DNA from: Polyangiales bacterium
Lineage (GTDB): Bacteria; Myxococcota_A; Polyangia; Polyangiales; Ga0077539
Direction of reading: 5' to 3'
Assembly (NCBI GenBank): GCA_044229975.1
Contig: JBGARZ010000005.1
Location: forward strand, 160,001-224,000
Length of the DNA stretch: 64,000 nucleotides
A program made the translations under genes and the position numbers. Of the stretch, positions 31,198 through 36,504 are shown in pieces; position 1 is the stretch's first letter, and every line of letters starts with the position of its first letter. The notes beneath the pieces were generated by a model. The model was not told the origin of the DNA, did not search any database, and was given only the letters and a program-made list of their open reading frames with translations.

Positions 31198-32289
31198 ATG
31201 GGCACGGCGGTTCACAGGCTCCTCCGCCAGATCGATCACGACATGCGCGTCGCGCTCCTGCTGGTCACTTCGGAGGGCGTGGTGCTCCACGCCGACCCCG
31301 ACGTGCGGGCGCTGCTCGGCCGTAGCCCGGCCCAATGCGAGGGCCGCTCCCTCGACGAGCTCATCCCCTCCATCGATCTCCTGGCCGCGATGCGCGAGGT
31401 GCACCTCGGCCTCGTCAAGCGCTGCACCCTCACCGTCGGCGTCGACGCGCCCATCCGCCGCCTGCTCGTCTCGCTGAGCGCCGTGCGCGGCGTCGCGGTC
31501 GAGCCGATGGTGGCCGTGCAGGTCACCTCGATGGACGACTACCGCGAAGAGCGCCAGGCGCGCGCCGCGGTGCGCCTGCGGGCCACCATCGAGTCGGTGA
31601 TCGCGGGCTTCGCGCACGAGGTTCGCAACCCCATCGCGGCCATCCTGAGCATCACGGAAGCAGCCCTCACCGACATGGCCCCCGGCACGACCGCCACCGC
31701 GATGCTCACCCGCATCCCGGGCCTGGTGAACCGCGTCGACAAGCTCATCAAGGAGTCGCTGCACTACAGTCGGCCGCGCTGTCCGAAGCGGGCCCCGCGC
31801 CCGCTGCGCTCGCTCGTCGACTGGTCCATCCAGCTCGCGCAGATGGAGAAGGGCGGCATCGACTTCGAGGTCGCCATCGACGACTCCCTCGGCGCCGTCC
31901 TCGTCGACGCCGAGCAGATCGAGCAGGTCATCGTGAACCTCCTCTGCAACGCCCGCGACGCCGCGCGACGGCGGGTTCAGCTCACGGCGCGCCGCGAACC
32001 CCCCGCGGGCGACGGCGCGGCCCGTCCGTCCCGCGCGCTGCTCCAGGTCACCGACGACGGGGCGGGCGTCGCGCCCGACCTGCACGAGCGCATCTTCGAG
32101 CCCTTCTTCACCACCAAGGCCCACGGCACGGGGTTGGGGCTCGCCATCGCCCGCGACCTCTCTCGCCTCAACGGCGGCGAGCTCGAACTCTATTCGAGCT
32201 CCGACCGGGGGACGACCTTCTCGCTCTACCTCGAAGAGCAGCCCGCGGTGCCGACCTCACTGTCGGGAATGGCCAGGGCCGTGACGTGA
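31198..32289 (+). CDS. Cytoplasmic PAS-like sensor histidine kinase (NtrB-like)
   Basis: H-box FAHEVRNPI, NLLCNA, DDGAGV, IFEPFFTTK and GTGLGL. No TM segment. Confidence 0.93.
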   Translation: MGTAVHRLLRQIDHDMRVALLLVTSEGVVLHADPDVRALLGRSPAQCEGRSLDELIPSIDLLAAMREVHLGLVKRCTLTVGVDAPIRRLLVSLSAVRGVAVEPMVAVQVTSMDDYREERQARAAVRLRATIESVIAGFAHEVRNPIAAILSITEAALTDMAPGTTATAMLTRIPGLVNRVDKLIKESLHYSRPRCPKRAPRPLRSLVDWSIQLAQMEKGGIDFEVAIDDSLGAVLVDAEQIEQVIVNLLCNARDAARRRVQLTARREPPAGDGAARPSRALLQVTDDGAGVAPDLHERIFEPFFTTKAHGTGLGLAIARDLSRLNGGELELYSSSDRGTTFSLYLEEQPAVPTSLSGMARAVT

Positions 32290-33710
32290 GCTCGGATGGG
32301 CCCGAGAAGCCCGATGGCGCGGTTCCGCGAGTCCTGCTGATCGAAGACGACGTCGACGTCGCGGCCGCGGTCACCCCCATCCTGGTCGAGCGCGGCAAGC
32401 GCCACATCGAGCACGTCGCCACGGCGAAGGCCGCGCGGGAAGCCCTCGCGCAGCGGGTCTTCGACGCCGTGGTGGTGGACCTCTCCCTGCCCGACGCCGA
32501 CGGCTTCGGGTTGTTGGAAGAGATCGCCGCGGAGTTTCCCAACACGGGAATCCTCTGCTTCACGGGTCGCGACGACGCCTCGGCCGCCGTGCGCGCGCTG
32601 CGGGCCGGCGCGACGGAGTACATCACCAAGCCGGCCCCGGCCGCGATGCTCCGTCAGGGGGTCGACAGCGCGGTCACCCGGTCGCGCGTGCGCCGCTCGC
32701 GCCTCTCGGGGGTGCTCGAAGCGCCGCTCCCCATCGGCAATTCCCCTCCGTGGCGGCAGACCATGGACCTGATCGAGGCCGCGGCGCGCAGCCCGAAGAC
32801 CACGGTGCTCATCACGGGCGAGCCGGGCGTCGGGAAGGAAGAGGCCGCCGCCCTGGTGCACCGGCTGAGCGCCCGACGCGACGGGCCCTTCGTGGCCGTC
32901 AACGCGGCGTGCCTCTCTCCCTCCATGATCGAGTCCGAGCTCTTCGGACACGAGGTGGGCGCCTTCACGGGAGCCCACCGCCAGCACCGCGGCTTCTTCG
33001 AACAAGCCAGCGGCGGAACCCTCCTGCTCGACGAGATCGGCGAGCTGCCGTTGGAGCTGCAAGCGAAGCTGCTGCGGGTGCTGGAGCGGCACCCCTTCCG
33101 CCGCGTCGGCGGGGAGAAGCCGCTGACGGTAGACGTTCGGCTGTTGTGCGCGACCAACCGCTCGCTCGACGAGCGGGTGCGCGTCGGGGCCTTCCGCGCC
33201 GACCTCCTCGAACGCCTCCGCGTCTTCGAGCTCAAGCTCCCGCCGCTGCGCGATCGGCCCGGCGACGTCACGCGCCTCGCCCATCACTTCCTCGCGCGGC
33301 TGGGCCCTGAGCTCGGCATCCCGGTCGAGGGCTTCTCTCCCCTCGCCCTCGAAGCGCTGGAGGGATACGCCTTCCCCGGCAACGTGCGCGAGCTGCGCAA
33401 CATCACCGAGCGCGCCATCGTGCTGTCGGGCGGAGGCATCATCGAGCGGCGCCACCTGCCGGGAGAGCTGTGGGGCCGAGGCATGACGAGCAGCGCGCCG
33501 CCGCCGCCGCCGAGCGACGACACCTCCCTCGAAGACGTGGTGCGAGAGCACATCCTCCGCGTCTATGAAAACACCGATCAGAACGTGACGCGCACCGCGC
33601 AGGTGCTCGGGATGTCTCGCCTGGCCGTGCGCAAGCGGCTGCAATCCTACGGTGTGCGTGCACGCGGCACAGACGACATCGGTGTAGACCGGAACGAAGA
33701 CGACCGGTAA
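32286..33710 (+). CDS. Sigma54-dependent response regulator (NtrC family; REC-AAA+-HTH)
   Basis: REC domain (LLIEDD, DLSLPD), Walker A GEPGVGKE, ESELFGHEVGAFTGA, LLDEIGE, FPGNVREL and a C-terminal HTH. GTGA overlap with the kinase. Confidence 0.95.
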   Translation: MSSDGPEKPDGAVPRVLLIEDDVDVAAAVTPILVERGKRHIEHVATAKAAREALAQRVFDAVVVDLSLPDADGFGLLEEIAAEFPNTGILCFTGRDDASAAVRALRAGATEYITKPAPAAMLRQGVDSAVTRSRVRRSRLSGVLEAPLPIGNSPPWRQTMDLIEAAARSPKTTVLITGEPGVGKEEAAALVHRLSARRDGPFVAVNAACLSPSMIESELFGHEVGAFTGAHRQHRGFFEQASGGTLLLDEIGELPLELQAKLLRVLERHPFRRVGGEKPLTVDVRLLCATNRSLDERVRVGAFRADLLERLRVFELKLPPLRDRPGDVTRLAHHFLARLGPELGIPVEGFSPLALEALEGYAFPGNVRELRNITERAIVLSGGGIIERRHLPGELWGRGMTSSAPPPPPSDDTSLEDVVREHILRVYENTDQNVTRTAQVLGMSRLAVRKRLQSYGVRARGTDDIGVDRNEDDR

Positions 33711-33755
33711 CAAACGATCCACCGGTGGATTCAAACGATCCACCCTGGTTGGATG
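33711..33755. promoter_or_regulatory. Putative enhancer (UAS) for a sigma54 activator
   Basis: Direct repeat CAAACGATCCACC at 33711 and 33732 (21 bp apart) and a perfect palindrome ATCCACCGGTGGAT at 33717-33730. Confidence 0.55.
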
Positions 33756-35766: not shown

Positions 35767-35772
35767 CCGGCG

Positions 35773-36504
35773 ATGGCCCTCTACGACCCCGCCCGCCGTA
35801 CGGTCACCATCCGCATCGTCTACGACGGGCTCGGCACCGCGGGGAAGACCACCAACGTCCGACAGATCTATGAGCTCTTCACCCTCGCGCGCGACGGCGA
35901 CGTGGTGGTGCCCGAAGAGCACCGCGGACGAACGCTCTTCTTCGACTGGCTGGAGCTCAACGCCGGCTACATCGACGAGCGCCCGCTGCGCATCCAGGTG
36001 CTGACGGTGCCGGGGCAGTTCGCCTACGCGCAACGGCGCTGGGCGCTGCTGCGAACGCCCGACGCCATCGTGGAGGTCTGCGACAGCACGCCCGACGCCA
36101 TCGCGCGCTCGCGCTACGCCGTCCGCTTCGTGCAGAAGATGCTCGCCGAAGGGAGCTGCCCCGACGTCCCCATCATCGTGCAGGCCAACAAGCAGGACGC
36201 GCCAGGCGCGCTGCGCGGCCCGGAGATGGCCGCCGCGCTGGGGCTGAGCCCGGAGGTGCGCGTCATCGAGGCCGTGGCGAGCCGAGGCGAGGGCGTGCGA
36301 TCGACGCTGCTCTTCGCGCTGCTCGATGCGCGCGAGCGGGTGCGGGCGCAGATCGCCGAGCACGGCATCGAGTCGCTCGAACAGGGCAACGAGAGCGCCG
36401 AGGACGTGTACCAGCGGATGCGGGCGATCGAAGACGACGGCACGGCGCAGGACGGCGCGGCCCTGGTCGAGAGCATGCTCAACGAGGACGGGGCGAACCG
36501 CTGA
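35773..36504 (+). CDS. MglA-family small GTPase paralogue
   Basis: G1 YDGLGTAGKTT, switch I RTLFFD, G3 TVPGQ, G4 NKQD and G5 EAVASRGEGV. Confidence 0.9.
   Translation: MALYDPARRTVTIRIVYDGLGTAGKTTNVRQIYELFTLARDGDVVVPEEHRGRTLFFDWLELNAGYIDERPLRIQVLTVPGQFAYAQRRWALLRTPDAIVEVCDSTPDAIARSRYAVRFVQKMLAEGSCPDVPIIVQANKQDAPGALRGPEMAAALGLSPEVRVIEAVASRGEGVRSTLLFALLDARERVRAQIAEHGIESLEQGNESAEDVYQRMRAIEDDGTAQDGAALVESMLNEDGANR

Follow-up and report, generated by a model that had tools for sequence, protein, structure and literature searches.

The locus and its five genes

We analyzed a stretch of 64,000 nucleotides (nt) of contig JBGARZ010000005.1 from a Polyangiales bacterium, hereafter referred to as the window; all positions are counted within it. 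Its forward strand carries five intact, co-oriented open reading frames (ORFs) spanning 31198-36504. This 5.3-kb unit codes for a histidine kinase, a sigma54-dependent activator, a small protein of the Roadblock fold, a fusion of a receiver (REC), a PATAN (DUF4388) and a second Roadblock domain, and an MglA-family small GTPase (Table 1). An earlier reading of the sequence (the original prediction) had proposed five co-oriented genes at this place, and these are indeed found there. The GTG start codon of the activator gene overlaps the stop codon of the kinase gene, and 6 nt separate the fusion gene from the GTPase gene. The further claim that the genes make up a dedicated module is supported by the recurrence of the parts in related loci, the separate clade of the GTPase and its co-occurrence with the Roadblock protein. 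The nearest named relatives are myxobacterial. Recent foreign origin of the module was considered and rejected, as its GC content (0.67-0.71) resembles that of the flanks.

Table 1. Genes and cis-elements of the module (positions within the window)
Feature	Position	Strand	Description
PAS histidine kinase gene	31198..32289	+	363 aa; Pfam PAS-HisKA-HATPase_c; H140
Sigma54 enhancer-binding protein gene	32286..33710	+	474 aa; REC (D65), AAA+ with GAFTGA, Fis-type helix-turn-helix (HTH)
Tandem palindromes YGGW-N9-WCCR	33705-33721 and 33726-33742	+	predicted activator sites; 21 bp apart
Sigma54 -24/-12 box	33815..33831	+	GG 33817-33818, GC 33829-33830
Free Roadblock-fold protein gene	33932..34294	+	120 aa; E50/R53/K57 of helix 2 conserved
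REC-PATAN/DUF4388-linker-Roadblock fusion gene	34429..35766	+	445 aa from GTG; alternative start ATG 34438
MglA-family small GTPase gene	35773..36504	+	243 aa; short form of YDG/FFDW clade

Kinase and activator

The kinase has no Pfam domain beyond PAS, HisKA and HATPase_c and no membrane segment evident from the sequence, in agreement with its original description as soluble. Its H140 is invariant in 12 aligned relatives; the PAS domain has nearly no invariant residues. The kinase falls into a 13-member clade (FastTree support 0.992) that leaves out 47 other kinases of the genome, and within the set examined members of this clade occur only at such modules. The activator, expected to be of the NtrC type, matches this expectation with Pfam domains REC, sigma54 AAA and HTH_8; the REC Asp, Walker motifs, GAFTGA (residues 225-230) and HTH are all present, and rpoN is encoded in the genome (contig C13). 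It belongs to a 12-member clade (support 0.985), and 58 other AAA+ activators of the genome fall outside. The activator gene of the closest relative (L001:4407-5781) has a frame break near the HTH, which may be an assembly error.

Promoter and upstream palindromes

A -24/-12 promoter had been predicted ahead of the free Roadblock gene, and the box found there has one mismatch to the consensus. This is far above chance: among 2000 random 450-nt windows of the genome, two had a match with up to two mismatches and none with one. The box is also kept in relatives, and transcription would start near position 33842. Upstream of the box are two tandem palindromes, overlooked in the original prediction, which contain a 13-nt direct repeat; in alignments of relatives the palindrome arms are kept while the spacers differ.

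We scanned 208 loci for a tandem pair with at most one mismatch and a box 87-122 nt downstream. Nine distinct loci and one duplicate were found (L001, identical to L113, L002, L004, L010, L018, L025, L029, L037 and L112), each with an activator of the same 12-member clade as that of the window; the motif itself had been derived from the window and eight of the matching loci, with L002 and L004 outside those alignments. L002 has the palindrome pair although its activator gene is found further downstream, on the opposite strand, so that the palindromes follow the promoter rather than the end of the activator gene. Across the genome, no perfect palindrome pair other than that of the window has a box with one mismatch or none; there are four weaker candidates. 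Since the box is preceded by tandem palindromes that track the clade of the activator, the adjacent activator very probably drives this promoter. Sequence conservation therefore speaks for the predicted two-component induction of the GTPase module.

In a strict sigma54 scan, 15 of 85 other loci had a box at a distance of 60-120 nt ahead of a Roadblock or fusion gene; none of the 15 is actinobacterial or gammaproteobacterial. The GG/GC core is aligned in all six promoters of one layout and in 12 of 13 of a second layout, which has a different activator clade and another upstream palindrome. This second promoter type, a sigma54 box with a different palindrome upstream of the Roadblock gene, was seen in L022-L024, L030, L032, L033, L035 and L050. 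It comes with an extra conserved block near the divergent kinase gene, and several of those kinases are without the H-box His. A sigma70 scan of positions 30900-36800 gave no sites, and no terminator-like sites were found on the forward strand inside the operon.

The GTPase belongs to a separate clade of the MglA family

The best PDB match of the GTPase is Thermus thermophilus MglA (E = 1e-29). The motifs RTLFFD and TVPGQ, previously noted as intact, are so, as are G21, K25, T26, R53, T54, Q82 and NKQD. The G1 pattern GxxxxGK[TS] corresponds to G19-T26 and the G4 pattern [NT]KxD to NKQD; an Arg stands beside the G2 Thr (R53-T54), and G3 reads TVPGQ, most clade members reading SVPGQ. By these motifs the protein fits Group 1 of MglA as delimited in PMC4316618. 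It retains the hydrophobic beta-2 stretch L55-F56-F57-W59, has a C-terminal extension of about 55 residues and is ~35% identical to the genome's own MglA.

GTPases encoded beside this Roadblock family form one clade, marked by YDG and FFDW, across which the charged residues D18, D58, R88 and R89 are invariant. In a quick tree of 69 rows, with no Group 2-5 sequences included, this clade is split from mglA-like rows with a Shimodaira-Hasegawa-like approximate likelihood ratio (SH-aLRT) support of 99. Judged by its sequence, the window GTPase thus belongs to a separate clade of the MglA family and is not an mglA orthologue. Identity with mglBA was accordingly rejected: the true pair of the same genome lies on contig C10, and the locus is distinct from the mglBA motility locus, as originally proposed.

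This Roadblock is encoded directly upstream in 41 of 42 clade rows versus none of 27 other MglA-family rows, most of the 42 having been fetched through the Roadblock query and being therefore enriched for it. To counter this enrichment, 251 genomes of the same order were searched separately with each profile. The GTPase clade was present in 52, the Roadblock family in 52 and both in 41 (10.8 expected); the genomes are related, not independent, so that these counts overstate the co-occurrence. A Roadblock gene lies within 200 nt upstream of 33 of the 74 clade GTPase matches and within 3.5 kb of 42. A search for clade GTPases in a 301-genome sample of the phylum gave 7.

Most clade members are longer than the window GTPase. 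Among 89 distinct clade GTPases, 62 carry a C-terminal domain (~235 residues) after the G domain, 23 are complete without it and four are cut off; neither the window GTPase nor the window's genome has this domain. The long forms measure about 460-560 residues with the C-terminal domain conserved (L195:7360-8853, L190:8802-10325 and others), and in L009 and L029 the domain is encoded after the Roadblock gene with no G domain. No Pfam match above cut-off was obtained in this region of the long relatives; in the Atlas the domain lies in unnamed clusters, with DUF6206 on 45% of members. Its structural model has a predicted local distance difference test score (pLDDT) of 95.4. The matches listed by Foldseek are kinases or kinase-fold proteins (E 0.002-0.012, best 1.8e-3). 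In VIA ~180 residues align to kinases with Z up to 6.6, the overall Z is at most 7.4, and the top three include non-kinase rows. A degenerate kinase fold may be taken from these model comparisons as a lead only. A WD40 repeat was also considered, and the PDB profile match behind it was judged spurious. As side observations, a small PDZ-domain gene recurs downstream of long GTPases (L023:8334-8726 and eight other loci), and L133, L176, L177 and L178 have two clade-related GTPase genes each, one very diverged, together with a divergent REC-PATAN-Roadblock protein and, in three of the four, a sigma54 box.

The free Roadblock protein

The free Roadblock protein has no Pfam (including Robl_LC7) or NCBIfam match. 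A phmmer search of the PDB returned weak dynein LC7 matches alone (best E = 0.065), a PDB profile search returned nothing, no MglB among others, and hhalign against the genome's MglB gave a probability of 0.5%. The predicted structure (pLDDT 94.5) has a template modelling (TM) score of 0.82 to Roadblock/MglB structures in Foldseek. It superimposes on Myxococcus xanthus MglB (6hjm) with Z 16.9 and a root mean square deviation of 1.7 over 115 aligned residues, and Z is about 17 to MglB and archaeal Roadblocks. The 120-residue protein, according to its model, has a Roadblock fold and is not an MglB homologue by sequence; the label 'roadblock-like' given originally therefore holds at the level of predicted structure. 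The family, for which Pfam has no model, is thousands strong: of 8000 candidates, 7991 were scored.

Helix 2 has three conserved charged residues. Next to the YDG clade, free copies (n = 53) keep E50, R53 and K57 in 92, 100 and 100%, and beside Group 3 (GTPGQ) GTPases (n = 11) all three in 100%; in actinobacterial copies (n = 20) the values are 70% for E50, 100% for R53 and 90% for R57. MglB dimers bind MglA via helix 2, and the A68R/A72R exchange lowers the affinity tenfold and the stimulation from about 50- to 10-fold (PMC3199381). In a helix-2 register made by hand from the N-cap, E50, R53 and K57 occupy small positions of MglB, with R53/K57 corresponding to A68/A72; a register shifted by one residue, as the PDB phmmer matches suggest, gives V52/R56 and still an Arg at the A72 site. 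On balance, the small residues that MglB has at A68/A72 are probably missing here. MglC has the same fold and, in the passages of PMC4719450 and PMC10329633 consulted, no GTPase-activating protein (GAP) activity, so that the fold does not imply GAP activity. The family is, by its sequence, no plain MglB, and a GAP function of the free copy is putative.

We propose that the free Roadblock dimer would partner the GTPase via a charged, co-evolved surface unlike the hydrophobic patch of MglB and would probably set its nucleotide state; that it binds the GTPase at all is in our estimate slightly the better guess. Alternatively, the Roadblocks could be MglC-like scaffolds that make no contact with the GTPase and organize PATAN proteins and other Roadblocks, the GTPase being served by the MglB of contig C10 or needing no GAP. 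We consider this rather unlikely, although several observations favor it. Nine of 29 Roadblock-family loci checked carry a Group 3 GTPase with E50/R53/K57 kept; in L040, L044, L049, L057 and others, homologues 57-61% identical follow GTPGQ GTPases beside a second Roadblock, and the gammaproteobacterial loci of the family also carry Group 3 GTPases. Ten of ten actinobacterial loci checked, including PATAN clusters, are without a small GTPase motif within the fetched flanks. The conserved face is thus kept in Group 3 and GTPase-less loci alike and may bind something else. The scaffold explanation further draws on the hand-made register, which puts R53/K57 where Arg weakens MglB binding, on the MglC precedent, and on the retention by the GTPase of the L55-F56-F57-W59 stretch that MglB binds. 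MglB is said to act also on a second GTPase, SofG. What speaks against a pure scaffold is the tight adjacency to one GTPase clade, often with this Roadblock as the sole one (L008, L114-L116, L183, L185); moreover, the clade-invariant D18, D58, R88 and R89 could complement the charged Roadblock face.

Two observations concern other Roadblocks. In most operons with a long GTPase, the first Roadblock is followed by one of a second, very conserved subfamily (L006:6429-6758 and 46 others), which forms its own clade and is likely a heterodimer partner. Actinobacterial clusters (L054:4243-6363, L064:4680-6369) combine the Roadblock with a protein that by eye looks like PATAN/winged HTH and with other Roadblocks, and no small GTPase motif was found in their fetched DNA.

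The REC-PATAN-Roadblock fusion

Pfam assigns REC and DUF4388 to the fusion protein. Its C-terminal domain and the free Roadblock share 57% identity across 113 residues, which confirms the predicted receiver protein with a second Roadblock copy. The receiver has D68, T96 and K117, and the acceptor Asp and Lys are retained in the fusion receivers compared. The receiver is joined directly to PATAN; between PATAN and the Roadblock come 87 linker residues, 20 of them prolines. In this Roadblock, Q375 and Q378 replace E50 and R53 of helix 2. In the rows counted, which stem from few lineages, both E50 and R/K53 are kept in 3 of 13 tethered copies that stand beside a free copy and in 12 of 16 sole tethered copies; the motifs of the strand and of the C-terminal helix are for the most part preserved.

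The original prediction saw in the tethered Roadblock a regulator of the GTPase, resembling a GAP or an exchange factor for guanine nucleotides (GEF) and switched by phosphorylation of the receiver. With the receiver abutting PATAN, a long proline-rich linker in between and the helix-2 residues lost to glutamines, the sequence speaks against this model, which we consider improbable. In its favor are the Roadblock fold, the 6-nt distance to the GTPase gene, and L204 and L205, where a full-motif REC-PATAN-Roadblock protein is the only Roadblock before the GTPase. In addition, MglB dimers touch MglA asymmetrically (PMC3199381), and a heterodimer with one diverged half could work. In the explanation that we propose, the diverged tethered Roadblock would instead be a docking hook, which pairs with the free copy and brings REC-PATAN to the GTPase; we regard this as an even bet.

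PATAN binds the pilus motor proteins PilB1 and PilC in Synechocystis, and MglA/MglB genes are found near PATAN genes (10.1101/2021.06.11.447907). From these two analogies, our tentative suggestion for the output is that PATAN would exert conditional control over surface motility or polarity, with the type IV pilus motor as the machinery acted on. The genome also encodes an orphan REC-PATAN-Roadblock paralogue (L080:6886-8109, contig C4 of G000), downstream of a gene resembling EAL-GAF by eye; no sigma54 box was found before it.

Distribution and gene order

A total of 79 loci were fetched through the Roadblock protein, and a further 60 relatives were searched with the GTPase. A GTPase like that of the window is present in 35 of the 79, and a close orthologue occurs in one of eight genomes of the same genus. 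The five-gene order for which a synteny search had been suggested is rare as an exact layout, being found in two other genomes, L001 (fetched through the Roadblock) and G004 (among the 60 GTPase relatives), while the parts themselves are conserved. What is conserved is a parts list and not a gene order, and rearranged versions are common. Four loci (L006, L010, L018, L025) have the order kinase, activator, fusion, accessory gene X, Roadblock, second Roadblock, GTPase, and ten have a divergent layout, in which kinase and activator belong to other clades. Partial modules are present in two cultured hosts, Sorangium sp. So ce134 (L004) and Minicystis rosea DSM 24000 (L008). Accessory gene X (L018:5097-5951, L033:3370-4269) codes for about 285-300 residues, occurs in 13 related loci and is absent from the window's genome; weak Pfam scores (DUF4388) make its product PATAN-like.

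Proposed wiring

With genes, motifs, fold, co-occurrence and conserved cis-elements established, we infer the following wiring between the parts. The soluble PAS kinase would phosphorylate two receivers, that of the adjacent activator and that of the fusion. Once phosphorylated, the activator would occupy the two palindromes and switch on the sigma54 promoter, so that Roadblock, fusion and GTPase are transcribed; the phosphorylated fusion receiver would switch its PATAN domain. Such a feed-forward loop would let a single signal build the G-protein module and then set its state. As a whole, this explanation has, in our view, somewhat more than an even chance of being right. Its less obvious step, phosphotransfer from kinase to fusion, is likely on sequence grounds: kinase orthologues in L003 and L012 stand directly before REC-PATAN genes without an orthologous activator alongside, which suggests that the fusion receiver is a second kinase substrate.

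Several observations weigh against this explanation. The ATP-lid motifs are worn in the kinases of L003 and L012. Two loci with an activator of the clade, L006 and L014, fail the tandem-site scan, and three unrelated loci (L024, L078, L183) pass it weakly with poor boxes. A Roadblock of the family is missing within 3.5 kb of 32 of the 74 clade GTPase matches and from 11 of the 52 genomes with a clade GTPase. Conversely, L002, L004 and L037 carry kinase, activator and fusion without the GTPase. Finally, no conserved motility gene was seen in the neighborhood of module loci.

The GTPase-less loci, in which kinase, activator, promoter and fusion persist, together with the orphan fusion paralogue on C4, would suit a different role for the fusion, that of a feedback device whose receiver, once induced, would draw off phosphate from the kinase and dampen the activator, with the GTPase part as an optional passenger. 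We find this very doubtful: a phosphate sink needs no conserved PATAN and Roadblock domains, and kinase and fusion remain paired where the activator is gone.

Taken furthest, our feed-forward explanation would make the module part of an undescribed Ras-like branch. Here, the YDG/FFDW clade, in most cases joined to a presumed degenerate kinase fold (compare the G-protein-pseudokinase combination of Roco), would have its own Roadblock family whose charged surface provides a second GAP mode; sigma54 would have it made on demand, and the same kinase would adjust it via the REC-PATAN-Roadblock hook. This remains a speculative and rather unlikely extension.

Neighboring genes

The downstream gene at 36578-38164 codes for a membrane protein that matches SecY and DUF2007 weakly, under the cut-off, and has a cluster of Cys residues at its N-terminus; it was rejected as a part of the module, having no counterpart among the 79 loci (E 1e-4). 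Upstream, an arginine decarboxylase gene (28902-30979) is followed by an 18-nt two-copy repeat holding an 8-bp inverted repeat. Further away, positions 43731-47045 encode a Cys-rich repeat protein of 1104 residues with a signal-like N-terminus, which we take to be typical of myxobacterial surface proteins.

Comparison with known systems

We found no description of this cassette in the literature searched, the scope of which excluded subscription papers such as the original PATAN and SofG papers. Among the systems most like it are those of Group 1 MglA, in which TVPGQ and an Arg adjoining the G2 Thr are likewise found; some members have PATAN genes nearby, and receiver-Roadblock fusions have already been noted there (PMC4316618, Wuichet and Sogaard-Andersen). 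Passages of that paper give, however, no cassette of kinase and sigma54 activator, no YDG/FFDW clade and no promoter element, and the window Roadblock differs by escaping Pfam Robl_LC7 and MglB sequence searches. The MglA/MglB pairs of M. xanthus and T. thermophilus have in common with the window the R53/Q82 motifs of intrinsic catalysis, the hydrophobic beta-2 stretch and a Roadblock-fold partner encoded upstream (PMC3199381, PMC10329633). The window GTPase, in contrast, is a paralogue in a separate clade, patchy in distribution and under a sigma54 promoter, and its partner has a charged helix 2, whereas that of MglB is small and hydrophobic.

In Group 3 operons the same Roadblock family serves as the second Roadblock. 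According to passages of PMC4316618, Group 3 GTPases have GTPGQ, no arginine finger and a receiver-like/winged HTH partner. Membership of the window GTPase in this group was rejected in view of its TVPGQ and G2 arginine, and our sigma54 scan found no box before the Roadblock genes of Group 3 systems.

The likeness to actinobacterial conservons (Group 2), drawn in the original prediction, stands insofar as a kinase, a Roadblock and a small GTPase share a locus and is otherwise loose. Passages of PMC4316618 describe conservons as having a membrane HAMP kinase with LPxR, CvnC (DUF742), GTPGQ/NxFD motifs and no response regulator. The window has a soluble PAS-HisKA-HATPase_c kinase, two REC proteins, no DUF742, and a GTPase with TVPGQ and NKQD; conservon membership was therefore rejected. 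PatA-type PATAN regulators likewise join REC to PATAN/DUF4388 (10.1101/2021.06.11.447907), but the window fusion has the reversed order (REC first), an added Roadblock and no chemosensory operon around it.

The ingredients are all of known classes. Known MglA switches have been studied as standing polarity devices, and the genes of their regulators lie elsewhere. In this case a single 5.3-kb unit brings together the kinase and the activator, the predicted DNA sites with the promoter, and the GTPase with its partners, so that the wiring can be rebuilt directly. The module defines a GTPase clade, present in 52 of the 251 genomes, and a Roadblock family that Group 3 systems share, so that a single biochemical result on the Roadblock, whether it proves to be a GAP or a scaffold, would matter for several systems that have not been studied.

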